A stretch of 32,000 nt of DNA from Candidatus Methylomirabilis oxygeniifera (lineage in GTDB: Bacteria > Methylomirabilota > Methylomirabilia > Methylomirabilales > Methylomirabilaceae). Under the pieces are notes generated by a model. That model did not search any database, had not been told where the DNA came from, and saw nothing but the letters and a program-made list of their open reading frames with translations. The stretch lies in NCBI GenBank assembly GCA_000091165.1, contig FP565575.1, positions 390,001 through 422,000 of the forward strand. The letters are read 5' to 3'. Position 1 is the first letter of the stretch. The number at the start of each line of letters is the position of its first letter. Shown piece after piece: positions 756-21,428 of the stretch. The translations under genes and the position numbers were made by a program.

Positions 756-1475
756 GTGGGGAAGAGCCGATATATCGCGATGGTGCTGGCGAGCCTCGTC
801 TTGCTGTCGGTAAGGCCGGCATCGGGGGAGATCTATTTCCGAACCGACGAGGATGGGTTTGTGCACTTTACTAACGTACCGACGACACCGCAACACAGGC
901 GGCTTCAACCGGGAGTGTTGCCTCCTACCACCAAACTGACCAGTGCGAACATGTCGGAGCTGATCAACGCCCTCGGCGCTGAGTATGGGCTTGATCCTGC
1001 TCTGATTCGGGCCGTCATTCAGGTGGAGTCGAACTTTAACCGCAAGGCTGTCTCGCCTAAAGGCGCGCAGGGGCTGATGCAACTGATGCCGGCCACTATC
1101 TGGCGCTTCTCAGTGGGAGACGCCTATGATCCTCATGAGAACATCGGGGCGGGCGCCCGATACCTCCGCCAGCTTCTGGACCTATTTCGCGGGGATCTGA
1201 CGCTGGCGCTGGCCGCCTATAACGCCGGAGAAAACGCCGTACTCCGGTATAAGGGAATACCGCCCTATGCGGAGACCCGGGACTATGTGGCGAAAGTCCT
1301 CAGTCTGTACCGGCGCGGGCAACGAGAGCGCCACGCCGGCGGGCCGATCGAGACGGTTGCCCAGGTGATTGCGGCACAGCCGCCGCCCCCTCCGCCGCCA
1401 CCGTCCATCTATAAGGCGGAGGCGTCCGATACCATCCTGTACACGAATATCCCACCGATCGTCCAGTCTCCTTAG
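756..1475 (+). CDS. Lytic murein transglycosylase (SLT/GH23 domain) with N-terminal signal peptide and C-terminal polyproline tract
   Basis: GTG start preceded by AGAGGGCGG. Hydrophobic N-terminus ending SVRPASG. SLT motifs VIQVESNFN...GAQGLMQLMP...AAYNAGENAV. Run of eight Pro codons at 1380-1403. Confidence 0.85.
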   Translation: MGKSRYIAMVLASLVLLSVRPASGEIYFRTDEDGFVHFTNVPTTPQHRRLQPGVLPPTTKLTSANMSELINALGAEYGLDPALIRAVIQVESNFNRKAVSPKGAQGLMQLMPATIWRFSVGDAYDPHENIGAGARYLRQLLDLFRGDLTLALAAYNAGENAVLRYKGIPPYAETRDYVAKVLSLYRRGQRERHAGGPIETVAQVIAAQPPPPPPPPSIYKAEASDTILYTNIPPIVQSP

Positions 1476-1684: not shown

Positions 1685-2032
1685 TTAACGAAGCAATTGT
1701 TCGTACGTTGCAGCGTCAAAGCCGACAACGAGCGTGCGGCCCTTCCGGAAGGTCGGAGCTCGCAGGCCCCCAGTCGGTCCCATCAGGAGTGCCAGAAGTT
1801 CGGTCCTGCCGGGCTTATCTTTCCGTAGATCTATATAGACACGCTTCTGCCCTTTCGTCGCGTAGATCTCGTCCACCTCTTGGACCAGCGCGAGCGCGTC
1901 TTTCTCCTTCAGGGTCTGTTTTTTCGCATCTATCTGCAACACGATTTCGATGCGATGTTGCGCAAGAAACTCTTGCGCCTTGACGCAGCCCTTTCATCCG
2001 GGGCGGTGGTACCTCCAATCGATTCGTCCCAT
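1685..2032 (-). CDS. ArsC/Spx-family thioredoxin-fold protein, candidate selenoprotein (in-frame TGA at 1996-1994 read as Sec; predicted MGRIDWRYHRPG-U-KGCVKAQEFLAQHRIEIVLQID...)
   Basis: ATG at 2032-2030 is preceded by GGAGGAGG with a 5-nt spacer. The TGA is in frame with track ORF 1685..1942 (2032-1942=90). The TGA sits at the first Cys position of the family CxxC motif. The C-terminal LRAPTFRKGRTLVVGFD matches the ArsC-family KRP..V.G..vGF signature. Confidence 0.6.
1951..1987 (-). promoter_or_regulatory. Candidate bacterial SECIS element downstream of the in-frame UGA
   Basis: On the minus strand: UGA-AAGGGC-[UGCG]-UCAAG-[GCGCAAG]-AGUUU-[CUUGCGC]-AACAU-[CGCA]. Perfect 7-bp upper stem (1978-1960), 4-bp lower stem, apical loop containing GU about 22 nt after the UGA. 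Confidence 0.45.
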
Positions 2033-2243
2033 TAAGACCTCCTCCATTAGGCCATTATGATGCGTACAGGCGGTCCATGGTGTACACTCACGGGTTCCAC
2101 CGAGGGCGTATTACTCGCGCAACAGCGGCTGAAAACGCATCTGACCATCGATCCCTCAGTATGGTGTCGGCGCCCCATCGTGACGGATGCCGGAGTTGTG
2201 TGCAAGGAGAAAGTTACTCTATTCTGGGATAGCCGAAAAAAGC

Positions 2244-2272
2244 TTGACATGATGATCTGCTCAAATTAGATT
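2244..2272 (+). promoter_or_regulatory. Sigma70-type promoter candidate for the fae operon (TTGACA-17 nt-TAGATT)
   Basis: Consensus -35 TTGACA at 2244-2249, 17-nt spacer, TAGATT at 2267-2272, about 85 nt upstream of the fae start. Confidence 0.5.
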
Positions 2273-2356
2273 AGATACTTCGCGTCTAAGCAATGATCTG
2301 TCGTTGTGAGCGATAACCTTAACTGGAAATGGTGGAAAGGAGAAGGAGGAATGTCG

Positions 2357-2851
2357 ATGCGTGATATCATGGTTGGCGAGTCATTGGCAGGTGACGGTAA
2401 TGAGGTGGCCCACATTGATCTGATGATCGGTCCCAAGAACGGTCCGGTCGGCGCCGTCATGGCACAGCGTCTTGCTCAGCAGAGTGCGGGCCACAGCGCC
2501 CTCCTGGCGGTCGTGGCGCCGAATTTGCTGGCGAAGCCTGCGACGGTCATGTTCAACAAGGTGACGATCAAGGGGGCAAAGCAGGCGGTCCAGATGTTCG
2601 GCCCGGCCCAGGCGGCCGTGGCGAAGGCCGTGGTGGACAGCGTCGCAGAGGGTGTGATCCCCGCGAAGGATGCTGAAGATCTGGCGATCGTTGTCGGTGT
2701 CTTCATCCACTGGGAAGCCGATGACAATAAGAAGATCTTCGACTACAACTATCAGGCGACTAAAGAGTCGATCGCGCGGGCATTGGCAGAGCAGCCCTCG
2801 ATGAGCGAGATCCTGGCGCAGAAGGATAAGGTCAAGCATCCATTCGCGTAG
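2357..2851 (+). CDS. fae: Formaldehyde-activating enzyme (5,6,7,8-tetrahydromethanopterin hydro-lyase)
   Basis: GESLAGDGNEVAHIDLMIGPK...MFNKVTIKGAKQAVQMFGPAQ...VGVFIHWEA...HPFA closely matches the Methylobacterium Fae signature. I prefer the ATG at 2357 (GGAGG 7 nt upstream) to the track GTG at 2306. Confidence 0.93.
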   Translation: MRDIMVGESLAGDGNEVAHIDLMIGPKNGPVGAVMAQRLAQQSAGHSALLAVVAPNLLAKPATVMFNKVTIKGAKQAVQMFGPAQAAVAKAVVDSVAEGVIPAKDAEDLAIVVGVFIHWEADDNKKIFDYNYQATKESIARALAEQPSMSEILAQKDKVKHPFA

Positions 2852-2899
2852 TCGGATCGATACGAGGTAAGATTACAGAGTAGAATCACCTATATCGAA

Positions 2900-2966
2900 G
2901 GGGGCTGCCGGGCGAGCGTTGAGGGTCTGATCGACCCCTTGCCCGTCGGCCCCTTTGATTTGTTTC
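2900..2966 (+). terminator. Intrinsic terminator/attenuator between fae and mtdB
   Basis: About 17-bp GC-rich stem (2900-2916 pairs with 2938-2954; one mismatch, two G-U pairs), followed by TTTGATTTGTTT. Confidence 0.55.
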
Positions 2967-2981
2967 GTTGAGTGAGGACCT

Positions 2982-3866
2982 ATGGCGACCGAGCGAAAGC
3001 ATCTACTCTATTTTTTGACGACGGAAACCCAACCGAGTCCGTTTGACATCAACATGGCGTACGATGCGGGCTTCCACGCCGTGATTCCATATGGTGGTGT
3101 GAATGAGGAGTCTGCAGTCCTGCTGGTGCAGGATATTATCTTCTCTCGAGGACCGAAAGGCGCCAAGTTCAGCGCGCTCTTCATCGGGGGTAACGACATA
3201 GACTCGGCCGAGCGGGTCCGTCAAGCCGCCGCAAAGAGTATGTTTCCCCCTTTCCAGGTGTCGATGATGATCGATCCCAAGGGGTCCTATACGACGGCCG
3301 TCGCGCTGGTCGCCAAGGCAGAGAAGGCACTGGGCGGATTGCGCGGCAAACAGGTAGCTATCCCTGGTGGAACAGGCCCAGTGGGTATCGTGGCAGCGAC
3401 CCTCTGTGTGAAGCTAGGAGCCGAAGTCATTATCGGCTCCAGACAACTGAGCGGCGTAGAGCGTCTGGCTCAGCGGCTCTCAGCGCAGACGGGAGGCTCC
3501 GTAAAGGGCGCCGCGATGGCGACGGACGAGGACAAGATCTCGCACCTGCGTAGCGCCGATGTGATCCTGACGACCGGTAAGGCGGGTATCCAGATGATTT
3601 CCGAGGCGGTCCTGAACGCGCTCCCGTCGGGGAAGCTCGTGGCCGACGTTAATGCTGTTCCTCCGACCGGTATCCATAACCTGGCGCCGAATGACGACCT
3701 CAAAGAGGTTGTGCCTGGTATCAGGGGCATCGGGGCGCTGGCGGTTGGGGTTCTGAAGTATGATGTCGAGATCGAGATGCTCGAAACAATCCGAACCTCA
3801 GAGAAGTGTGTGGTGCTCGACGAGACGAAAGCCCTGGAGATTGCCCAAAGACGGCTGTCCGTCTGA
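2982..3866 (+). CDS. mtdB: NAD(P)-dependent methylene-tetrahydromethanopterin dehydrogenase (MtdB/MtdA family)
   Basis: About 294 aa. Family-typical N-terminus (FDINMAYDAGF) and Rossmann motif GGTGPVG. Located between fae and the fhc genes. Confidence 0.85.
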   Translation: MATERKHLLYFLTTETQPSPFDINMAYDAGFHAVIPYGGVNEESAVLLVQDIIFSRGPKGAKFSALFIGGNDIDSAERVRQAAAKSMFPPFQVSMMIDPKGSYTTAVALVAKAEKALGGLRGKQVAIPGGTGPVGIVAATLCVKLGAEVIIGSRQLSGVERLAQRLSAQTGGSVKGAAMATDEDKISHLRSADVILTTGKAGIQMISEAVLNALPSGKLVADVNAVPPTGIHNLAPNDDLKEVVPGIRGIGALAVGVLKYDVEIEMLETIRTSEKCVVLDETKALEIAQRRLSV

Positions 3867-3959
3867 GAGCCGTATGGTGAGGTGAGTAAATAATAGGTGG
3901 TGCTGTGATCTTATCGGTTGTGTGGTAAGATTTTATTATCGGATAGGAGCGAGAATCAG

Positions 3960-4298
3960 GTGCCCGAGACACAGTTTATATTGATCACCGGCCGATCGAC
4001 CAAGCAGGGAAGTTCAGCCCATCTCGGGAAGGACGCCCAGGAGTACCGGGACGAGGTCTCGACCTTGCAGATGAACCTCAAGGATATCGAAGCGATAGGA
4101 TTACAGGATGGGGTTCAGGCGCGGGTCACATCGAACTACGGTTCGATCGTGGTCAAATTGAAGAAAACCGATATCCCGCAGGGAATCGTCTTTATTCCTT
4201 ATGGAGAACTGAGTAACGCCCTGATCGGTCCGGATACCCAGGCTACAGGGATGCCGGATTCAAAGGGGATCACGGTGGAGGTTGGACGCCATGACTGA
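3960..4298 (+). CDS. Formylmethanofuran dehydrogenase subunit D-like protein (molybdopterin-dinucleotide-binding beta-barrel domain)
   Basis: ILITGRSTKQG...GVQARVTSNYGSIVVKLKKTD.PQGIVFIPYG...TGMPDSKG matches the FwdD/FmdD pattern. GTG at 3960 with AGGAGCGAG upstream is preferred to the track start at 3918. The stop overlaps the next start (ATGACTGA). Confidence 0.8.
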   Translation: MPETQFILITGRSTKQGSSAHLGKDAQEYRDEVSTLQMNLKDIEAIGLQDGVQARVTSNYGSIVVKLKKTDIPQGIVFIPYGELSNALIGPDTQATGMPDSKGITVEVGRHD

Positions 4299-5646
4299 GA
4301 GCGTTGCCGTGAAAGAGCCGGCTGTGAAAGAACCGTATGTGATGACGGGCGTCGTCTGCCCCTTCTGCGGTGTGACGTGTGACGATCTGGAGGTCAAGGT
4401 CGAGGACGGAAAGATCACGGAGGTCAAAAACGCCTGCGTCCTGGGTAAAGCCACCTTTCTCCATCACCTGGAGGGGTTGTCGACCCCGAGGCTGTATGGA
4501 AAACCGGCCACCGTTGATGAATGTATCGACGCGGCCGCAGAGGTTCTCGCGAAGGCCAAGTATCCCCTCATCTATGGGCTCGACTCGACCGAGCTGGGCG
4601 CGCAGCGGGCGTCGATCGAGCTGGCCGATCTGATCGGTGCGAATATCGACCACACCTCATCGGTCTGCCACGCGCCGAGCTATCAGGCGGTGATGACCGT
4701 CGGCATCCCGACCTGCACGTCGGGAGAGACGAAGAACCGGGCCGATCTGGTGATCTTCTGGGGATGTAATCCGGCCGAGGCGCATCCACGGCATGCCACC
4801 CGGTACTCGGTGACCGTGAAGGGGATGTTCGTCCCCAAGGGGAAGAAGGACCGGACGGTCATTCAGGTCGATGTCAGGCCGACGCCGACCACACGAATTG
4901 CCGATGCCTTCATCCAGATGAAACCGAACTCCGACTACGAGGTCATTTCTGCACTCAGGGCGCTCGTGAAGGGCCACGAACTGCCGCAGGCTGAGGTCGG
5001 GGGAATACCGGTCGATGAATTGAAAGCCCTGGTAGAAAAGATGAAGAGCTGTAAGTTCGGGATCGTCTACTGGGGGATGGGCCTGACTCAGACCAGGGGT
5101 AAATATCTGAATCTCGTCGCGCTGCTCAAGCTCGCTCAGGATCTCAACGAGTTTACAAAATTTTCGTGCGCGGCGATGCGAGGTCATGGCAATGTCGTGG
5201 GAATGGCTCAAGTACTGACATGGCAAACCGGTTTCCCCTTCCACGTCAATATGAGTCGCGGCTATCCTCGATTCAACCCTGGGGAATTCTCGGTGGTCGA
5301 TCTATTGGCCCGTAAAGAGATCGATGCCGCATTGATTGTTGCCGGCGACGCCATCGGGAACTTTCCCGGGAGCATGGCAGAGCATCTGAAATCGATCCCG
5401 CTGATTGCCATCGATCCCAAAGAGAGCGATACGACCAGAGTGGCTGACATTGTCATTCCGTCAGCGCAGGGAGCCATCGGCGCCGGGGGGATGGCGTACA
5501 GGATGGACCATATCCCCCTGATGTTCAAAAAGGTGGTTGAGTCACCCTACCCATCGGATCGGGAGATCATCGACCGCATCATCGCGAAGGTGAAGGCGAT
5601 GAAGAGTTGCGGTAACGGCGCTCCCGCCCCGGCCGGTAGAGGCTGA
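4291..5646 (+). CDS. fhcB: Formyltransferase/hydrolase complex subunit B, i.e. formylmethanofuran dehydrogenase subunit B homologue (molybdopterin-oxidoreductase fold)
   Basis: N-terminal CPFCGVTCDD...C (CX2CX3CX18C) and the SSVCHAPS motif. Position immediately before fhcA. ATG at 4291 with GGTGGAGG 8 nt upstream. Confidence 0.88.
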   Translation: MTESVAVKEPAVKEPYVMTGVVCPFCGVTCDDLEVKVEDGKITEVKNACVLGKATFLHHLEGLSTPRLYGKPATVDECIDAAAEVLAKAKYPLIYGLDSTELGAQRASIELADLIGANIDHTSSVCHAPSYQAVMTVGIPTCTSGETKNRADLVIFWGCNPAEAHPRHATRYSVTVKGMFVPKGKKDRTVIQVDVRPTPTTRIADAFIQMKPNSDYEVISALRALVKGHELPQAEVGGIPVDELKALVEKMKSCKFGIVYWGMGLTQTRGKYLNLVALLKLAQDLNEFTKFSCAAMRGHGNVVGMAQVLTWQTGFPFHVNMSRGYPRFNPGEFSVVDLLARKEIDAALIVAGDAIGNFPGSMAEHLKSIPLIAIDPKESDTTRVADIVIPSAQGAIGAGGMAYRMDHIPLMFKKVVESPYPSDREIIDRIIAKVKAMKSCGNGAPAPAGRG

Positions 5647-5658
5647 GGATAAATCGAC

Positions 5659-7305
5659 ATGGGACGCTCATTACGAATTGTCGGCGGTGAGGTCTACGAC
5701 CCGGCTAACGGGATCGATGGGGCCATTAAAGAGATCTGTGTTGAGGATGGAAAGATTGTAGAGTCCTGTACCAGGCCCGCTGAGGTGATTGACGCCGCGA
5801 ATCTGGTCATTATGCCGGGTGGTGTCGATATTCATACTCACGTCGGCAGTCCGGCGGTCAACGCGGCTCGCGGGTTCAGGCCGGAGGATCACCAGCGGAT
5901 GCATTTCCACTCAAAGCCCGCTGCCGGTATCAGGTCAGGCGTAGGCTCGACGGTCCCCTCCACCTTTGCGACCGGCTACCTGTATGCTCAGATGGGCTAT
6001 ACCACCGTGATGGAAGGCGCAAACGCGCCCATCGGTGTTCGGCATACCCATGAGGAGTTGATCGATATCCCGATCGTGGATAAGGGACTGTATATCGAAT
6101 TGGGGAGCAATGAGTTTATCCTGAAATTCATTAAGGCCGGCGAGATGGAGAAGGTCAAGCGATATGTCGCCTGGCTCCTCAGATCGTTGAAGGCGTATGG
6201 CGTCAAGCTGGTCAACCCCGGCGGGGTCGAGCAGTGGAAGTACGGCAAGGACGTGAAGAACCTGGACGATAAGGTCCACTACTTCGACGTCACGCCACGT
6301 CAGATCCTGAAGGCACTCGCCTGGGCCAACGAAAGCCTCGGATTGCCTCACTCGATCCACCTGCACGCCAATAGTCTGGGCACACCCAATAACTACCTGA
6401 CGACTCTGGACACGATGCGGACGCTTGAGGGCTCAAGACTCCATGTGGCGCACGCTCAGTTCCACAGTTACGGCGGAGAAAACTGGGGTGGTTTCTGCTC
6501 AAAGGCGGCCGAGATCGCGGAGTATATCAATACCCATCCCAACATCACGACGGACATCGGCCAGATCGTCTTTGGTGATGCCACGACCATCACGGCGGAC
6601 GGCCCGTGGCAGTACCGGTTGTATAAGCTCAGCAAGAATAAATGGTACAACCAGGACGTCGAGATCGAAACGGGATGTGGGATCGTTCCGTATACCTATC
6701 GGGAGAACAACTTTGTCAACGCCCTGCAATGGGCCATCGGGCTGGAGCTTTTCCTCCTGATCCGTGACCCGTGGCGAGTATTTCTTTCCACGGATCATCC
6801 CAACGGCGGCCCCTTCTACCTCTATCCCTGGATCATCAGGCTGCTCATGGATAAACCGTTCCGGGATGAGATGCTGAAGCGCGTCCATAAGCGTGTGTTG
6901 CCGGAGACGATGCTGTCGTCGCTTGACCGCGAGTATACCCTGAATGAGATCGCCATCATCTCCAGGGCGGGTCCCGCGAGAGCATTGGGGCTCACGCATA
7001 AGGGCCACCTGGGGGTGGGAGCGGATGCCGACATTACCATCTATTCCAAGGACAGCGATAAGGAGCAGATGTTCGAGCATCCCGTCTATGTCATCAAGGG
7101 CGGCGAGACGGTGCTTCGTGACGGCGAGATCATTCACAGCGTTGATGGTAAGACCCTGTTTGTGATCCCGCCTGAGGTCGGCGAGATGGACCCGACGTTC
7201 AAGACCGAATTCGAAAACTACTACACGATCCGGTACCAGAATTTCCCGATCGATATCGAGGACATCCCCCACCGAGAGGCGATTCCTGTGGGAGCGCCTC
7301 GATGA
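5659..7305 (+). CDS. fhcA: Formyltransferase/hydrolase complex subunit A (FwdA-like amidohydrolase)
   Basis: 548 aa. Amidohydrolase metal motif PGGVDIHTHV, with later HLH and HAQFH motifs. GAGGA SD upstream. Confidence 0.92.
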   Translation: MGRSLRIVGGEVYDPANGIDGAIKEICVEDGKIVESCTRPAEVIDAANLVIMPGGVDIHTHVGSPAVNAARGFRPEDHQRMHFHSKPAAGIRSGVGSTVPSTFATGYLYAQMGYTTVMEGANAPIGVRHTHEELIDIPIVDKGLYIELGSNEFILKFIKAGEMEKVKRYVAWLLRSLKAYGVKLVNPGGVEQWKYGKDVKNLDDKVHYFDVTPRQILKALAWANESLGLPHSIHLHANSLGTPNNYLTTLDTMRTLEGSRLHVAHAQFHSYGGENWGGFCSKAAEIAEYINTHPNITTDIGQIVFGDATTITADGPWQYRLYKLSKNKWYNQDVEIETGCGIVPYTYRENNFVNALQWAIGLELFLLIRDPWRVFLSTDHPNGGPFYLYPWIIRLLMDKPFRDEMLKRVHKRVLPETMLSSLDREYTLNEIAIISRAGPARALGLTHKGHLGVGADADITIYSKDSDKEQMFEHPVYVIKGGETVLRDGEIIHSVDGKTLFVIPPEVGEMDPTFKTEFENYYTIRYQNFPIDIEDIPHREAIPVGAPR

Positions 7306-7341
7306 CCTCGATGACATTGTGGTGGATCTGACGGAGACGCG

Positions 7342-8256
7342 ATGGAGATTAATGGCGTTCATATCGATGAGACATACGCAGAGGCATTCGGCGCCTATGC
7401 CGGTCGGGTAACGATTACCGCGTGCAGTAAGACGTGGGCCTACGAGGCAGCTCGGAGCATGACGGGCTTCGGGACCTCGGTGATCGGCTGTGGTTGCGAG
7501 GTGGCCATTGAAGGGATCGAGCCGACGGACACGCCGGACGACCGCCCCGGCGTGAGTGTGTTGCTGTTTGCCATGTCAAAAAAGGCAGTTCAGGAGCAAC
7601 TCATCAATCGGATCGGTCAGTGTGTGATGACCGCTCCTACCTCGGCCTGTTATAACGCCCTGGAGGCGGAAGATCGCCTGTCGATCGGGGGCAAGCTCAA
7701 ATTCTTTGGAGATGGATTTCAGATCAGTAAGCGGCTTGACTCACAGATAACCGAAAACGGGAGCGGTCCGCGGCGCTTTTGGCGGATTCCTGTGATGGAC
7801 GGCGAGTTCATTGTTGAAGACCGTTTCGGGGTGAAAAAGGGGGTAGCCGGAGGCAACTTCTTACTGCTGGGGCGCGGACTGCCGGAGACCTTGCAGGCTG
7901 CGGAGCGGGCGATCGAGGTGATGCGAAAGGTGTCGGGCGTCATTATGCCGTTCCCCGGCGGCGTCGTGAGATCCGGCAGTAAGGTCGGTTCGCGCTATAA
8001 GTTCCTCAATGCCTCAAGCAACACCGCCTTCTGCCCGTCGCTGAGAGGGTCGGTCAAGAGCGACCTGCCGGAAGGGGTTGGAGCGGTTCTCGAGATTGTC
8101 ATTGATGGCCTGACGCCGGAGGCGGTGGGAGAGGCGATGCGGGTTGGTATTCGGGCCGCGTGCGGTCCGGGTATCGTGAAGATCTCCGCCGGCAACTACG
8201 GTGGAAAGTTAGGCAAACATCACTTTCACCTCCATCAGCTATTAGCTGAGGGCTGA
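7342..8256 (+). CDS. fhcD: Formylmethanofuran:tetrahydromethanopterin N-formyltransferase (Ftr; FhcD)
   Basis: 304 aa. N-terminus IDETYAEAFG...GRVTITA and overall Ftr-like sequence. Lies within the fhc cluster. Confidence 0.92.
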   Translation: MEINGVHIDETYAEAFGAYAGRVTITACSKTWAYEAARSMTGFGTSVIGCGCEVAIEGIEPTDTPDDRPGVSVLLFAMSKKAVQEQLINRIGQCVMTAPTSACYNALEAEDRLSIGGKLKFFGDGFQISKRLDSQITENGSGPRRFWRIPVMDGEFIVEDRFGVKKGVAGGNFLLLGRGLPETLQAAERAIEVMRKVSGVIMPFPGGVVRSGSKVGSRYKFLNASSNTAFCPSLRGSVKSDLPEGVGAVLEIVIDGLTPEAVGEAMRVGIRAACGPGIVKISAGNYGGKLGKHHFHLHQLLAEG

Positions 8257-8289
8257 TCGCTGACGGCTCACTTGTGAAAAGAGGGTAGC

Positions 8290-9099
8290 ATGTCACCAGT
8301 CGTGCTTCGCATGAAAGCGGCCCCAACGAATATTCCACTTGAGGCGGAGTCGATCTCGCCCGATCTGTTCGTGCAGCGCAGTCAGGGGGAGATTGAGTCC
8401 ATGCCCGTTGCGTTGGGAAACGAGACCTACCGGCTTGGCGACTTCTTCACGGTTGAAGGAGAGCGCTCGGATGAGATCGTTCTAGAGGGCTGTACGGAAC
8501 GGGTCAAGTGGGTCGGTTCAGGGATGACGCGCGGTCGAATCGTGATCCGCGGCGACGTCGGGATGCACGCCGGATCGTACATGCAGGGCGGCGAGATCCT
8601 CGTCGAAGGGAATGCAGACGACTTTCTTGGCGTTGAAATGCAGGGCGGACTGATCCGGGTGAAGGGTAATGCGCGGCATCGGGTTGGGGCTGCCTATCGT
8701 GGGAGCAAGTACGGCATGCAGGGCGGGACCATCCTAGTCGACGGTAACGTCGGGCACGAAGTGGGCGCCTATATGCGGAGAGGTCTCCTCGTCATCAAGG
8801 GGAACGCCGAGGATTTCTTGGGGGCCATGATGATGACCGGAACGATCTGCCTCTTCGGCCAGGCAGGCATCAGAACAGGAGGCGGAATGCAGAAGGGGAC
8901 CATCGTCTGCATGCGTCCCGTCGATCTACTGCCGACCTTCGCCTACGACTGCACCTATGCGCCGGTCTTTCTCCGAATTTTGTTTAAGGAGCTGAAGCGC
9001 CTGGGGGTAGCGTGTCCCGCTCAGGCAGACGGACTCTTCCGACGCTATCACGGCGACATTGCCGATGTTGGAAAAGGCGAAATCCTGATCGCTGCGTAA
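8290..9099 (+). CDS. fhcC: Formyltransferase/hydrolase complex subunit C (FwdC-like, glycine-rich beta-helix repeats)
   Basis: Repeated G..G.I.V.GN......G motifs (IVIRGDVG, ILVEGNAD, IRVKGNAR, ILVDGNVG, LVIKGNAE), typical of FwdC and the GltB C-terminal domain. Confidence 0.9.
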   Translation: MSPVVLRMKAAPTNIPLEAESISPDLFVQRSQGEIESMPVALGNETYRLGDFFTVEGERSDEIVLEGCTERVKWVGSGMTRGRIVIRGDVGMHAGSYMQGGEILVEGNADDFLGVEMQGGLIRVKGNARHRVGAAYRGSKYGMQGGTILVDGNVGHEVGAYMRRGLLVIKGNAEDFLGAMMMTGTICLFGQAGIRTGGGMQKGTIVCMRPVDLLPTFAYDCTYAPVFLRILFKELKRLGVACPAQADGLFRRYHGDIADVGKGEILIAA

Positions 9100-9112
9100 G
9101 GAGGACACGATC

Positions 9113-10063
9113 GTGTCGCTGAGTATGAATCGCCAAGCCTGCGAGATTCTCGATCGAATGGCCGAGCAGCCGGAAGCGCTCGGCATCTCCATCTCGACAC
9201 TGACGAACGGCGCCAGAGTTGTGGATATGGGGGTCAAGGCGCCTGGCGGCCTGCTCGCGGGGAAGGGGCTGGCGGAGATCTGCCTTGGTGGGCTGGGAGA
9301 GGTCGCGTTCCTTCCGCTTCACTACGGCGACTTCTCGACTCCGGGTATCAGTGTCGCGATCGACAGCCCGCTACGACCCTGCCTCGGCTCACAGTACGCC
9401 GGCTGGAAGATCCATCGCGGGAAGTTTTTTGCGATGGGGTCCGGTCCGGCCAGGGCGCTGGCGAGGACCGAGGAGCTGTTTGAGACGATTCGTATCCGGG
9501 ACGACCACGACTCGGCAGTCCTCGTACTGGAAAGCGGCCGCCTGCCCGCTGAGGAGGTCGCCGATTACGTAGCGGAGAAATGCGGCATCAAGCCTGATCG
9601 GGTCTCCCTGGCGGTCGCTTCCACGCGAAGCGTTGCCGGGGGGGCGCAGATCGCGGCGCGCTCCGTAGAAACCGCGATGCACAAACTGATGGAGTTGGGT
9701 TTCGACGTGACCAAGGTACTCAGCGGCTTCGGCACCTGCCCCATTGCCACGCCTGCTGCGGACGATATGGCGGCGATCGGGCGAACCAACGATTGTGTCT
9801 TGTACGGTTGCGAGGTGTTCTTAACGATTTCGGCGACCGATGCCGAGATCGAGACGTTCATTGAGAAGATTCCCTCCTGCTCGTCTCGGGACTACGGCCA
9901 GTTGTTCGGAGACCTCTTTAAGCGTTACGATGGCGACTTCTATAAAATCGATCCGTTCCTTTTTAGTCCCGCCAAGATTACCATTACCAACGCCGCCAGC
10001 GGTCGAACCTATCGGGCCGGGCGCTTCAATGCCGAACTGCTTCAGACCTCTCTCCTGAGTTAA
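9113..10063 (+). CDS. mch: Methenyltetrahydromethanopterin cyclohydrolase
   Basis: 316 aa, Mch-like throughout. GTG start with AAGGAGGA upstream. Position directly after the fhc genes. Confidence 0.92.
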   Translation: MSLSMNRQACEILDRMAEQPEALGISISTLTNGARVVDMGVKAPGGLLAGKGLAEICLGGLGEVAFLPLHYGDFSTPGISVAIDSPLRPCLGSQYAGWKIHRGKFFAMGSGPARALARTEELFETIRIRDDHDSAVLVLESGRLPAEEVADYVAEKCGIKPDRVSLAVASTRSVAGGAQIAARSVETAMHKLMELGFDVTKVLSGFGTCPIATPAADDMAAIGRTNDCVLYGCEVFLTISATDAEIETFIEKIPSCSSRDYGQLFGDLFKRYDGDFYKIDPFLFSPAKITITNAASGRTYRAGRFNAELLQTSLLS

Positions 10064-10131
10064 CGACCGTTAGGCGGAGGGCGTGAGGCGTAAATAGTGA
10101 GGCGATGATGCCCACGTTGTTTATTTCTGAC

Positions 10132-10145
10132 CCCTCACCCCTCAC
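10132..10145 (+). repeat. Heptanucleotide repeat CCCTCAC x2, with inverted GTGAGGCG copies at 10083-10090 and 10097-10104
   Basis: Read directly from the sequence. Member of the CCYNCAC array family also seen at 11039, 19053 and 29438. Confidence 0.6.
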
Positions 10146-10161
10146 GTTTCCCGTTTCTCGC

Positions 10162-11037
10162 ATGAGAATCGGGATCCTGGCCGACAGAAACGGGTGGCAC
10201 GTCGAGGTACTGGCGAAGGCGCTGGCGCGACGCGGCTGCCAGGCCGACTTCCTGCCGATTACCCGACTGGTGGCCCGTGTCCCCGCCGATCCGCTTGTCG
10301 CGATCAACGGCCAATCCCTCGAATCGTACGATGCGCTGCTGATCCGGACGATCCCGGAAGGGTCGCTGGAGCAGATCATCTTCAGGATGAATGCGCTGCA
10401 CCGGTTGGAAGCGGCCGGTGTGCGGATCATGAACCGACCCAGCCCGCTGGAACAGACTGTCGATAAGTACTATACGTCCAGTCTGCTCGCGTCGCGCGGC
10501 CTGCCGACCCCGCGGACAATAGTCGCCGAAGGGTTCGACGAGGCGATGGCGGCGTTGTGCGAGCTCGGCGATGTGGTGGTGAAGCCGCTCTTTGGCGCCG
10601 GGGGACGAGGGATGGTGCGGGTGTGCGACGCCGACGTCGCCTATCGAGTCTTTCGCGCGCTTGCGCTGACTCGGAGCATCTTCTACATCCAGGAGTTTGT
10701 CCCGCATGGCGATTACGATCTCAGGGGTCTGGTGATAGGGGATCGTGTTGTTGCGGCCATGCGCCGACGGTCTGATGGGTGGCGGCATAATGTCTCTCAG
10801 GGCGCGCAGCCGGAGCCGATCGTCATGGACGAGGAAGCGACCAGACTCTGTCTTGAGGCCAGTCGACTGCTTGAGACCGATTATGCCGGGATCGATCTGT
10901 TGAAGACTGATAAGGGATATACGGTAGTCGAGGTCAACAGTATCCCCGGCTGGTCCGGCCTGCAGCGAACGACTGAAATCGATCTCGCCCAGGAGATCGC
11001 CGACCACCTGGTGAGTTTATTGGAACGCCTATGCTGA
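10162..11037 (+). CDS. RimK-family ATP-grasp ligase of the H4MPT/methanofuran cofactor-biosynthesis type (MptN / orf5-like glutamate ligase)
   Basis: ATP-grasp motifs (VVKPLFGAGGRGM, YIQEF, DLRGLVIGD, VEVNSIPGW). The family normally starts M(K/R)IGIL, which matches the ATG at 10162. The ATGs at 10105/10108 (track start) remain possible because a GAGG lies just upstream. Confidence 0.8.
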   Translation: MRIGILADRNGWHVEVLAKALARRGCQADFLPITRLVARVPADPLVAINGQSLESYDALLIRTIPEGSLEQIIFRMNALHRLEAAGVRIMNRPSPLEQTVDKYYTSSLLASRGLPTPRTIVAEGFDEAMAALCELGDVVVKPLFGAGGRGMVRVCDADVAYRVFRALALTRSIFYIQEFVPHGDYDLRGLVIGDRVVAAMRRRSDGWRHNVSQGAQPEPIVMDEEATRLCLEASRLLETDYAGIDLLKTDKGYTVVEVNSIPGWSGLQRTTEIDLAQEIADHLVSLLERLC

Positions 11038-11933
11038 GCCCACACCCCACACCCTCCACCCTATACCCTGATAAGGTGTCTCTTGCCGCCCAGCTCGCCT
11101 GTTTGCTGGAGGTCAGCGCCGATAAGCCCGGGAACGTCACTCCGTTTGCCGATTTCGCCGACACTCGCTACACCGACTTTCTGGCGAGTTCCGTCATTCT
11201 GGGGCAGGTCCTGCGAAAGGTTGCAACGCGTGCGACCGGCACGCTGGTCTTCGACGCGGTTCGACAGACGAGACGACTGATCGACCGGAATACCAATCTG
11301 GGCATTGCACTCCTCTTTGCCCCCCTGGCAAAGGCGGCCCTGCGGAAGGGGCGTCGATCTCTCCGGTCCAGCCTTCACAGCGTCCTGGCCGCCCTTACCC
11401 CGTATGATGGTCAACGGATCTATGAGGCGATTCGTCTGGCTGAGCCAGGAGGCCTTGGACAGGCGGATCGGTTGGATGTCCGAGCGACCCATGGCAGGGT
11501 CCCACTCCTTGAGGCGATGCGCGCCGCGGCCGATCGGGACTCGATCGCGCGCGAGTATGTCACCGATTTCGAGCTTACCTTCACCATCGGCGCTCCGACC
11601 CTCGATTGTTCGCTCCAGGAGTTGGGCGACTCGGAAGCCTCGGTCATCCAGACCTACCTGACGATCCTCTCTCGCGTGCCGGACTCCCTCGTCGCGCGCA
11701 AATGCGGGGTGCGTGAGGCCGCCAGGATCTCACGGGAGGCGGAAAGGATTCTGGCCATCGGAGGGGTATGTACTGAGCAGGGGTGGCGCAGGCTTCGACG
11801 ATGGGACGTCGCCCTCCGCAAGGACGGGAACCGTCTCAATCCAGGCACAACGGCCGACCTGACCGCCTCGGCGCTCTTTGTGGTGGCGTTAGAGCACGGG
11901 GTCGAATGTCTGCTGGGTCGCAGCGCACGCTGA
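11031..11933 (+). CDS. Triphosphoribosyl-dephospho-CoA synthase (CitG/MdcB)-like protein, methylotroph orf7-type H4MPT-linked gene
   Basis: CitG-like N-terminal core LLEVSADKPGNV, and NPGTTADL near the C-terminus. The ATG overlaps the upstream stop (ATGCTGA). The first 15 codons are made of the heptamer array, so the true start may be GTG near 11076. Confidence 0.75.
   Translation: MLSPHPTPSTLYPDKVSLAAQLACLLEVSADKPGNVTPFADFADTRYTDFLASSVILGQVLRKVATRATGTLVFDAVRQTRRLIDRNTNLGIALLFAPLAKAALRKGRRSLRSSLHSVLAALTPYDGQRIYEAIRLAEPGGLGQADRLDVRATHGRVPLLEAMRAAADRDSIAREYVTDFELTFTIGAPTLDCSLQELGDSEASVIQTYLTILSRVPDSLVARKCGVREAARISREAERILAIGGVCTEQGWRRLRRWDVALRKDGNRLNPGTTADLTASALFVVALEHGVECLLGRSAR
11039..11066 (+). 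repeat. Heptanucleotide array CCCACAC CCCACAC CCTCCAC CCTATAC
   Basis: Read directly from the sequence. The complement GGGTGGAGGGTGTGGGGTGTGGG has four G3+ tracts. Confidence 0.7.
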
Positions 11934-19527: not shown

Positions 19528-20073
19528 CTATTGCCGCTCGACGTAATTTTGGAGGTATTGCATCGCCTGGGCTTCCTGCTCCCCCCCGGTTTTCTGCACA
19601 ATCTCAGCCAGGCGGCGATACTCCTGAAGGATCGTTTCCACACCCAGGAACCGGACCCGAGTGGCCAGGATCGCCGCCTCAATAATCGCATTCTTCGCCC
19701 GGTTGAACCCGATGAATTCCCGCAGGACGCCTTTCTTGATGATTTTACAGCGAAAGGTTGCGCGCGGGGAGGTGGTATCGGCGTGCATGACCGAACACTC
19801 GTAATAAGAGCAGGCGTCGGTCAGGACACGGCCGGGAACCAGCTCGGCCGGAAACGCAGGAAACTGAGGGCTGGAGATGGCGCTTTCGGCGAATAGGCGG
19901 ATCGAGTCGGTCAGATTGACGACAGCAGCCCCGGTGGCGACAAGATTCCGATAGGTGGCTGAATCTGTATAGGGGCGGATAAGGATCTCCCCTTCCCTGA
20001 TGGCGACCCCCATCGGGGCACAATTCGCCTCTCCCTCCTCATTCAACGTTGTGACGATACTCTCAATAATCAT
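19528..20073 (-). CDS. DUF447-family protein associated with H4MPT biosynthesis clusters (methylotroph orf19-type)
   Basis: 181-aa product starting MIIESIVTTLNEEG. The start overlaps the upstream stop (TAATG). The longer track ORF (to 20799) overlaps the next gene out of frame. Confidence 0.75.
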   Translation of the reverse strand: MIIESIVTTLNEEGEANCAPMGVAIREGEILIRPYTDSATYRNLVATGAAVVNLTDSIRLFAESAISSPQFPAFPAELVPGRVLTDACSYYECSVMHADTTSPRATFRCKIIKKGVLREFIGFNRAKNAIIEAAILATRVRFLGVETILQEYRRLAEIVQKTGGEQEAQAMQYLQNYVERQ

Positions 20074-21428
20074 TATCCTGTCCCGAGATACCCCCATTTG
20101 AGATCGTCTTCCTGGATATATTTTTTTCCGAGCAGCATTGCTATCCGCGCCTTCATCAGCTCGCGACCCAGGTAAAAGGCGTGACCGACCGGTTCCTGGC
20201 CGAGGTGCGCCGTAAGCTGGTCGAAGATCCGGCGGATGTCGGTCTCCTTGATGAAGAGATCGCGATTGAACACATAGATGGCCTCCCGGTCCGCAAAGAT
20301 CCTGAAGTTCTGGTCCGTCACCATCGGCTGCATCTCCCTCAGTTCTGCTTCGGATGGGCAATCGATCCGTCGGTCCTTGATGGTGAGCAGGCCGTCGTCG
20401 ATATCTTTCGGCAGCACCCCCCGCTGCCGGGCGTAATACATCAGCCGCCGAGCCAGGTCCAACTCGCGGACGGAGCCCCTGGCCCACGAGGCCACCTCGG
20501 TGGTAAGCACATATCGGATCTGCAGCTCCGACATCACCCCTGCGAGGAGCGCATTGATCCCCGTGCTGTCGGCATCGGTCAACTCGGTGATGTTTCCCAC
20601 CCCCATGAGGATCTCGGCCTGCGGGAAGCGGCGTCTCGCCTCGGTGTAGCGGGCGAGCGATTCGGCGAAACCGAAGCCGATCGGCGCGAGAATGGGATCG
20701 ATGAGGTATTGCGTGCTGCTCAGGCGCTCCACGGCTTCGATGTTCGCCGCCAGGGAATCCAGCCCCTTGCCGAAATCGGGGATAATCACCGGGGTGCACT
20801 GTAGATCCGGGGCAAGCTGCAGGTTCAGAGCGTTCAGGCTCAGGAGCAATTCGGCGCCGGCCTTGTCGGCGGCAAGAATCTCCTGCGGATCAAAGCTGTC
20901 GATGCTGACGCGGAACCCTTCAGACCGAAGTGCCGAGACAATCTCACCGACATTACCGGCCGGTCGCGCCGGGATACAGCCGACATCGATGATATCCGCG
21001 CCGCAGGCTGCGTAGTAGCGGGCCTTGCGGAGGATCTCCTCGATCGGCAGGGTGGGGGCGTCGTTGATCTCGGCCAGGATGGTCAGATCATGCCCGCCAT
21101 ACCCCTCCCGTTTCTTCTCGACACCGAAGTAGTAGGGGATATCACGCAGATCCTTCGGCCCCTTTTCGACCTTTACGCCCAACGCCTGCTCCAACTCGCC
21201 AGGTTCCACACGGCAGAGTCCGGGGATCATCAGCAGGTCACAGGATGGTGAGCGGAGCGCATGGAGGATGAAGGGCTGGGTCATCAGGGCGGCCACGCTG
21301 ATCTTGAGGACGGCCACCTCGTGGTCGAAGTCGGCCTGCATGCCTGCCAGCGTTTCTTTCAGGGCACGCTCTGCCAGCTTGCCGGTAATGAAGAGGATCT
21401 TCATGCGCCCGCCGCATTCCGTCGTCAC
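20073..21428 (-). CDS. Dihydropteroate synthase-like (pterin-binding) protein of H4MPT biosynthesis
   Basis: Pterin-binding barrel motifs (GADIIDVG, NALNL, GVGNITELTDADS). GTG at 21428 forms a GTGA overlap with the SDR stop. ATG at 21404 (MKILFITG) is an alternative start. Confidence 0.8.
   Translation of the reverse strand: MTTECGGRMKILFITGKLAERALKETLAGMQADFDHEVAVLKISVAALMTQPFILHALRSPSCDLLMIPGLCRVEPGELEQALGVKVEKGPKDLRDIPYYFGVEKKREGYGGHDLTILAEINDAPTLPIEEILRKARYYAACGADIIDVGCIPARPAGNVGEIVSALRSEGFRVSIDSFDPQEILAADKAGAELLLSLNALNLQLAPDLQCTPVIIPDFGKGLDSLAANIEAVERLSSTQYLIDPILAPIGFGFAESLARYTEARRRFPQAEILMGVGNITELTDADSTGINALLAGVMSELQIRYVLTTEVASWARGSVRELDLARRLMYYARQRGVLPKDIDDGLLTIKDRRIDCPSEAELREMQPMVTDQNFRIFADREAIYVFNRDLFIKETDIRRIFDQLTAHLGQEPVGHAFYLGRELMKARIAMLLGKKYIQEDDLKWGYLGTG

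Follow-up and report, generated by a model that had tools for sequence, protein, structure and literature searches.

A predicted UxxC selenoprotein of the ArsC/Spx-like family NF041106, deposited as a shortened open reading frame in Candidatus Methylomirabilis oxyfera

A short locus on the minus strand of contig FP565575.1 raises the question of whether its product is the 85-residue hypothetical protein under which it has been deposited (CBE67529.1), or a longer protein in which an upstream in-frame TGA is decoded as selenocysteine (Sec). Within the window, meaning here the whole stretch of 32,000 nucleotides that was analysed, the mechanical ORF list holds at this locus solely an 85-aa ORF starting at GTG 1942, as an earlier sequence-only reading had remarked. 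Translation of the same frame further upstream gives 115 codons, running from ATG 2032-2030 through a TGA at codon 13 to the stop codon TAA 1687-1685. It is very probable that this gene (2032-1685, minus strand) encodes a 115-residue UxxC selenoprotein belonging to the NF041106 ArsC/Spx-like thioredoxin-fold family, with Sec13 predicted to be inserted in a SECIS-dependent manner. The features of the locus are as follows.

1685..2032, minus strand: predicted ArsC-like selenoprotein CDS, full length (115 codons, TGA codon 13 as Sec)
2038..2045, minus strand: Shine-Dalgarno sequence GGAGGAGG, with a 5-nt spacer (TCTTA) before ATG 2032
2030..2032, minus strand: proposed true start codon ATG (from translation and from the distal starts in related loci)
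1994..1996, minus strand: in-frame TGA, predicted Sec codon 13, with which the U-x-x-C redox motif begins
1985..1987, minus strand: TGC, putative resolving Cys16 of U-x-x-C (C16 does not vary in the protein alignment)
1960..1978, minus strand: predicted SECIS hairpin, 8-bp stem GCGCAAGA/UCUUGCGC and loop GUU (1970-1968), from folding and homologue pairing
1937..1996, minus strand: UGA and the 57 nt after it, matched by the covariance model of the family's SECIS element (49.6 bits)
1685..1942, minus strand: deposited 85-aa ORF beginning at GTG 1942 (CBE67529.1 / UniRef100_D5MJU6, "uncharacterized protein"), very probably an annotation artefact

Eleven sense codons lie between ATG 2032 and the TGA, which is followed by AAG, GGC and TGC to give U-K-G-C. 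Translated conceptually, the frame gives MGRIDWRYHRPG-U-KGCVKAQEFLAQH... (115 residues), which reads M..IDWRYHRPG-U-KGC. The sequence-only reading had pointed to a strong Shine-Dalgarno sequence five nucleotides ahead of ATG 2032 and to an in-frame TGA with the second Cys of the motif retained, and both are present at the positions listed above. GGAGG-like motifs are also found ahead of the distal start codon in loci of NC10, Melainabacteria and Terriglobia, while the sequence before GTG 1942 has no SD-like motif. A scan for promoters and terminators returned matches at chance level only; one of the scanned 'terminators' falls within the CDS, where it overlaps the 5′ arm of the hairpin.

With U replaced by C, the read-through product matches the NCBIfam model NF041106.1, "ArsC family (seleno)protein", with 137.8 bits (E-value 1.8e-40) where the curated cut-off is 85 bits, and its residues 4-110 cover model positions 1-107 of 107. 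This is the decisive family match; the Pfam ArsC domain (PF03960) scores 18.3 bits on the product and remains under its gathering threshold of 24. The Spx/MgsR model (TIGR01617) likewise gives 35.4 bits, under its cut-off of 75.05, and the NCBIfam search, taken to E ≤ 1, gave no match to TIGR00014.

The codon occupying the TGA column was compared at the DNA level across 32 related loci, the window included, which were translated in frame upstream of their called genes. Full length is kept in these loci. The column holds TGA in 26 of them (window counted) and TGC or TGT, giving CxxC, in the other six. The TGA loci belong to four phyla, namely NC10/Methylomirabilota, Melainabacteria/Obscuribacterales, Acidobacteriota and Planctomycetota. 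A Cys aligned with codon 13, which the sequence-only reading had proposed looking for, was thus found in six homologous loci and also in a 115-aa protein (P0119). Ahead of the TGA, all 26 loci carry a conserved M..(I/V)(D/E)WxYxRxG peptide with a start codon 11-13 codons upstream, and the same distance to the TGA/Cys column was found in 16/16 genome loci. Invariant columns of the protein alignment are W6, Y8, R10, the U/C column and C16. Among seven NC10 sequences, pN/pS was 0.12 for the ten codons preceding the TGA versus 0.26 for the remainder of the gene, from which it follows that the upstream codons are translated and constrained. Counting loci and database representatives examined, there are approximately five Sec forms per Cys form, and the NF041106-type family seems to be mostly of the Sec type.

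The hairpin predicted downstream of the UGA consists of arms 1978-1971 and 1967-1960, which form a perfect 8-bp stem with the loop GUU, or A-GUU-U when the closing pair is open. It begins 15 nt downstream of the UGA, with the apical loop beginning 23 nt after it. As a 28-nt element it has a folding energy of -12.2 kcal/mol (z = -4.63) and none of 200 shuffles was as stable, while the fold of the 66-nt context is unremarkable (z = -1.14); the signal is in the 19-nt core hairpin. The consensus for bacterial SECIS (bSECIS) elements requires a loop of 3-9 nt, an upper stem of 4-16 bp, a UGA-loop distance of 16-37 nt and an MFE ≤ -7.5 kcal/mol (PMC13188914, Fig. 2A legend), as well as a G within the first two nucleotides of the loop, in many cases with G or U after it (PMC13188914). 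The loop GUU, the 8 bp, the 23-nt spacing and the -12.2 kcal/mol of the hairpin all lie within this consensus. A hairpin at this site had been part of the sequence-only reading, and its perfect stem exists, with 8 bp in fact, and agrees with the bSECIS consensus; however, the additional UGCG/CGCA lower stem of that reading is not conserved. This lower stem does form in the window sequence, but as a conserved feature it was rejected, being paired in 60.4% of cases in 24 homologues, which equals the shuffle mean, and a slid register pairs better.

Conservation of the core stem was assessed in an alignment of 24 distinct Sec-form sequences, which is gap-free from the TGA. In these homologues 88% of the stem cells are paired, versus 29-55% when the 3′ partner is slid, and the covariation score of 0.219 (0.092 in shuffles) was reached by 0/500 shuffles. 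Pair 21-35 occurs as GC (16 sequences), CG (6), UA (1) and UG (1) and is never broken, while pair 26-30 occurs as AU (20) or GC (3); the loop nucleotides G27 and U28 are invariant in the Sec forms. The compensatory change from GCG/GCG to GCC/GGG also changes the protein, from Ala-Gln...Leu-Ala to Ala-His...Leu-Gly, and an additional change from A-U to G-C is seen in locus L043 (CAA..CUU to CGG..CUC; Gln to Arg). That compensatory changes alter amino acids argues for selection on the RNA and not on the peptide. The Leu codon of the 3′ arm is CTT in 24/24 Sec forms and CTG or CTC in the six Cys forms. Between 6 and 8 of the 8 stem pairs are formed in all 24 Sec forms, versus 2-3 of 8 in the Cys forms (Mann-Whitney p = 8.5e-6, indicative only, given the relatedness of the sequences and the few clades to which Cys forms belong); this contrast is confounded with clade, and the Cys forms also differ in their amino acids at this site. 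The hairpin proposed from a single sequence is thus conserved and covarying, and is absent from the Cys forms.

Searching the hairpin region with a covariance model was a check that had been suggested with the original proposal. A model trained without any NC10 sequence, i.e. on other phyla only, finds the window element at 1996-1937 (minus strand) with 49.6 bits (E-value approximately 7e-11), and the 32-kb window has no other match above 13 bits. Of the Sec-form loci kept out of the training, the seven others (L042 and six NC10 relatives) score 40-58 bits, and the homologous sites of Cys forms ≤14 bits. Rfam returned no SECIS match, either for the whole window at gathering thresholds or for 1880-2060 at E ≤ 10, but this negative is uninformative, as bacterial SECIS elements vary much in sequence (PMC13188914).

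With regard to the machinery for Sec, Mariotti et al. (2015) list Ca. M. oxyfera in their table as having SelA, a Sec-containing SPS/SelD and three predicted selenoproteins, with no ybbB (PMC4561486, supplement file 20). Both selA and selD, whose presence in the genome the sequence-only reading had made a point of, are therefore scored as present. A Sec-type SelD itself requires working UGA-to-Sec decoding, which implies selB and tRNA-Sec also. Within the 32-kb window no sel genes or tRNA-Sec were found, the sole tRNA being tRNA-Val, nor were other split selenoprotein genes, fwdB being uninterrupted. A literature search for direct mentions of selB, selC or selenoproteins in Methylomirabilis yielded only the Mariotti 2015 table and a remark in a 2026 review, according to which Methylomirabilota MAGs are reported to be selenoprotein-rich, one of them having 63 predicted selenoprotein genes.

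An explanation that would retain the full-length frame is that the UGA is read through without Sec, with Trp, Cys or Gly inserted by near-cognate or suppressor tRNAs or under a reassigned code, the hairpin then serving to slow the ribosome or being a by-product of the conserved peptide AQEFLA. Some gene callers did give homologues a W at this residue (P0151, P0180), and the stem overlaps conserved codons, meaning that part of its conservation reflects the protein. However, the W forms are products of the caller, which translated TGA under table 4, and TGA serves as an ordinary stop for 13/26 window genes, which indicates that the genetic code is not reassigned. The sole sense codon found in the column among homologues at the DNA level is that of Cys, the chemical analogue of Sec. 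Synonymous sites of the stem are also frozen, as seen with the Leu codon, pairing survives the substitutions that change amino acids, the bSECIS geometry with its invariant loop GU is present, and the genome is scored with SelA and a Sec-type SelD (PMC4561486). Read-through of this kind is accordingly regarded as very unlikely.

Another rival reading is that the real gene is the 85-aa ORF from GTG 1942, and that the ATG, the TGA and the hairpin belong to its 5′ leader. It is the annotation in all public records of the exact sequence (CBE67529.1, KAB2960606.1), and a protein database search returned 165 homologues of which nearly all are 82-85 aa, shortened in the same manner as in the window. 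Three classes of database entry are nevertheless artefacts of gene calling at this TGA. In the first, 82-85-aa products are begun at an internal codon, although both the TGA and the frame ahead of it are present in the DNA; in the second, 102-105-aa "MTC..." products are begun at an ATG right after the TGA; the third comprises the full-length products with W mentioned above, which come from low-GC contigs. At E ≤ 1e-10, an exhaustive profile search gave approximately 355 representative clusters (50% identity), and the top 150 of these include 15-17 that are full-length with CxxC, 22 that begin just after the TGA and 95 that are N-terminally truncated, the last class being inflated by contig-end fragments. 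The expectation that standard gene callers would truncate or miss this gene is thus borne out by the deposited protein and by most of its homologues. PGAP, for its part, names the orthologue HEX7550151.1 'ArsC family (seleno)protein [Ca. Methylomirabilis sp.]'.

The 85-aa product itself would have neither the redox motif nor the first strand and first helix of its fold, and it scores 13.1 bits only with Pfam ArsC, whereas the read-through product covers the NF041106 model from end to end. Its GTG lacks a Shine-Dalgarno sequence, while a strong one precedes ATG 2032. Orthologues starting near the GTG 1942 position would have spoken for the short ORF, but the 26 TGA loci all run upstream through the TGA with the conserved peptide, and the codons of that supposed leader are conserved as protein across four phyla with the low pN/pS given above. 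The short ORF is therefore extremely unlikely to be the real gene.

That the locus is a pseudogene in which a Cys codon decayed to TGA, or that the TGA is a sequencing error, is barely credible even though TGA is one substitution from TGC/TGT and Cys-form homologues exist, since this same TGA is seen in four independent M. oxyfera assemblies (the exact 85-aa ORF is also on ENA contig Methylomirabilis_oxyfera_contig_196, the SRR023516 contigs and GCA_009026205.1) and in 25 other loci of four phyla, purifying selection acts on both sides of it, and a structured RNA element co-occurs specifically with it.

The preferred reading, that of a selenoprotein gene, can be set out as a series of proposed steps. 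Translation would begin at ATG 2032 behind the strong Shine-Dalgarno sequence, and the UGA at codon 13 would not act as a stop. The 8-bp hairpin with its GU-containing loop would serve as a bacterial SECIS element, to which a complex of SelB, GTP and Sec-tRNA(Sec) may bind and so bring selenocysteine to the ribosome. Sec would in this way be inserted at residue 13, its insertion in vivo presumably being SelB-dependent, and U13-K-G-C16 is predicted to sit where strand 1 meets helix 1 in a thioredoxin-like fold.

The last of these steps draws on a model of the fold, obtained by AlphaFold (AF2) for P0119, a full-length Cys homologue with 48% identity to the window protein. This model has a mean pLDDT of 90.3, with strand 1 at residues 7-10, the CxxC motif at residues 14-17 and helix 1 at residues 15-26. 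The TGA column of the window aligns with its Cys14, modelled at the N-terminus of helix 1. The best sequence match among solved structures is Bacillus subtilis Spx (PDB 1z3e), in which U13/C16 align with the C10-x-x-C13 redox switch, and LRAP of the window protein aligns with LRRP of Spx. The best PDB fold matches of the P0119 model are Spx and "ArsC-family related" proteins, with TM scores of 0.5-0.56 only, and its central subdomain has a beta-hairpin where the Spx/ArsC-related structures are helical. In view of the sub-cut-off scores with Pfam ArsC and TIGR01617 and of these TM scores, any functional analogy to ArsC or Spx is loose, and the kinship to ArsC is at superfamily level only. As the protein fails both the true-ArsC and the Spx models, neither arsenate reduction nor RNA-polymerase binding is to be assumed for it.

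Most likely, the product cycles between a selenol/thiol pair and an intramolecular selenenylsulfide and is a small reductase of disulfides or other oxidised substrates; for UxxC selenoproteins, formation of a selenenylsulfide during turnover is how the motif is usually read (PMC1088965). Alternatively, the protein could act through its selenium as a redox sensor or regulator, or could have a role in NC10 tied to the fae/H4MPT cluster, for example in protection against NO or O2 in intra-aerobic methane oxidation. This is suggested by the apparent, unusual dominance of Sec forms in the family and by a central subdomain predicted to be unlike that of ArsC/Spx, but it is considered unlikely.

Genes neighbouring the locus in the window include fae, mtd, fwdDBA, ftr, fwdC, mch and H4MPT-biosynthesis genes, and bioB, bioA, bioD and a histidine kinase/response regulator pair are also present, a gene content in keeping with M. 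oxyfera. The fae/H4MPT formaldehyde-oxidation cluster is transcribed divergently from the selenoprotein gene. The locus is syntenic with fae and an SLT-domain gene within NC10 only, and no gene neighbours shared across phyla were found that could give a clue to the substrate. No ars genes occur near the locus in the window.

Selenoproteins related to ArsC have been described before, as the sequence-only reading correctly said of metagenomic surveys. The Sargasso Sea survey of 2005 described a UxxS selenoprotein under the name "arsenate reductase" (COG1393; PMC1088965), a bacterial survey of 2006 reported "ArsC-like" selenoproteins in Desulfotalea and Desulfuromonas, and the GOS selenoproteome of 2008 (Zhang and Gladyshev) contains 'Arsenate reductase 2' (cd03032, UxxC) (PMC2398784). 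In a catalogue of 2026, 'Arsenate reductase 2' is equated with NF041106, under the name 'Arsenate reductase-like protein' and with UxxC (PMC13188914). The window protein shares with this family the full-length match, the UxxC motif and the alternation of Sec and Cys among homologues; there is no difference of substance, the window copy merely having been deposited as a truncated 85-aa hypothetical protein. The gene thus belongs, as an ordinary member, to a selenoprotein family already catalogued since 2008, and is not new.

Other known systems are more distant. Like Spx/MgsR, which provides the best sequence and fold match of solved structures, the protein has an N-terminal redox pair, with U13/C16 in the place of Spx C10/C13. 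It differs from Spx in its score with the Spx/MgsR model (35.4 versus 75 bits), in the TM scores of 0.5-0.56 and in the predicted central beta-hairpin, Spx being all-helical there; Spx also has Cys where the window protein is predicted to have Sec. The ArsC-type 'Arsenate reductase 1' (UxxS; TIGR00014/pfam03960) belongs to the same superfamily and has Sec at the equivalent N-terminal catalytic position. However, that family has UxxS and matches the true-ArsC models, whereas the window protein has UxxC and no TIGR00014 match, which together with its sub-threshold Pfam ArsC score means that arsenate reduction is not implied. As for the RNA element, it resembles bSECIS elements of the Escherichia coli fdhF/fdnG type in lying within the CDS just 3′ of the UGA, in its stable upper stem, in a small apical loop with G then U, and in a UGA-loop spacing within 16-37 nt. 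It differs from these in having no primary-sequence similarity to them and no conserved lower stem, and no bulged U was identified in it.

General knowledge of selenoproteins is unchanged by this locus, as the family has been on record since 2008 and has a curated model in NF041106. The alignment of its SECIS element (26 sequences, with compensatory changes and the contrast between Sec and Cys forms) could seed a covariance model, Rfam being without one. The practical value lies in the correction of annotation, as in most metagenome gene calls, and in the reference genome of M. oxyfera, a truncated 82-85-aa hypothetical protein stands in place of this gene, and counts of selenoproteins or redox proteins in NC10/Methylomirabilota that are based on such calls miss it.

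In two database proteins of the ArsC-like selenoprotein family, P0180 and P0151, the alignment column of the Sec codon (codon 13 of the window gene) carries a Trp, and the corresponding DNA (loci L043, 301-654, and L044, 301-648) shows this residue to be a TGA translated by the gene caller under genetic code 4. The contigs concerned have a GC content of 36-44%, and the SECIS stem of L043 has a compensatory change from A-U to G-C. A third family member, P0182, which was matched in the protein-representative search, reads G-W-T-T-S and has no second Cys; this presumably represents U-T-T-S. P0182 thereby recalls the UxxS motif of true ArsC selenoproteins.

The following features lie within or around the selenoprotein gene or elsewhere in the window:
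756-1475, plus strand: SLT (lytic transglycosylase) domain protein gene, convergent with the selenoprotein gene
1974-1987, minus strand: terminator-like consensus match inside the selenoprotein CDS
2306-11933, plus strand: region with a full H4MPT-linked C1 module (genes fae, mtd, fwdD, fwdB, fwdA, ftr, fwdC with GXGXG, mch)
19528-21428, minus strand: two long ORFs overlapping by ~730 nt, from the mechanical ORF list

In the terminator-like match, the 5′ arm of the SECIS stem takes UGCG(U) as an alternative partner, and the U-rich loop and the 3′ arm come next. Such matches occur at chance level in the terminator scan (two found versus 1.0 expected), and the lower stem (UGCG/CGCA) that the sequence-only reading had proposed is not conserved.

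The SLT-domain protein possesses nine consecutive prolines close to its C-terminus, and this neighbour of the selenoprotein gene is also present in the NC10 loci L018-L019, L039, and L041. In the region of the C1 module, RimK-like ATP-grasp and CitG-like genes of cofactor biosynthesis lie 3′ of the module genes. The reading frame of fwdB in the window (4282-5646, plus strand) is uninterrupted, although some planctomycetes and archaea have FmdB as a selenoprotein (PMC4807772).

The related locus L001 (DATMXF010000196.1, 1-6255) shares 92% nucleotide identity with window 2218-4791 and 84-92% elsewhere, as well as the gene order fae, mtd, fwd, ArsC-like. It is almost certainly a mis-binned or mislabelled Methylomirabilis contig. 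Its record is titled 'Patescibacteria group bacterium'.

With respect to the overlapping ORFs, one possesses DUF447 and the other DUF6513 with a pterin-binding domain. As DUF447 begins only at residue 246 of its ORF, the true start is probably near 20080 and the overlap probably an artefact of choosing the most upstream start codon.

The AF2 model of P0119, a full-length Cys homologue, predicts a beta-hairpin (residues 56-69) in the central subdomain, which is all-helical in Spx and ArsC structures. In line with this, fold matches of the model are modest (TM 0.5-0.56), and the predicted hairpin may be a sign of a structurally distinct subfamily.
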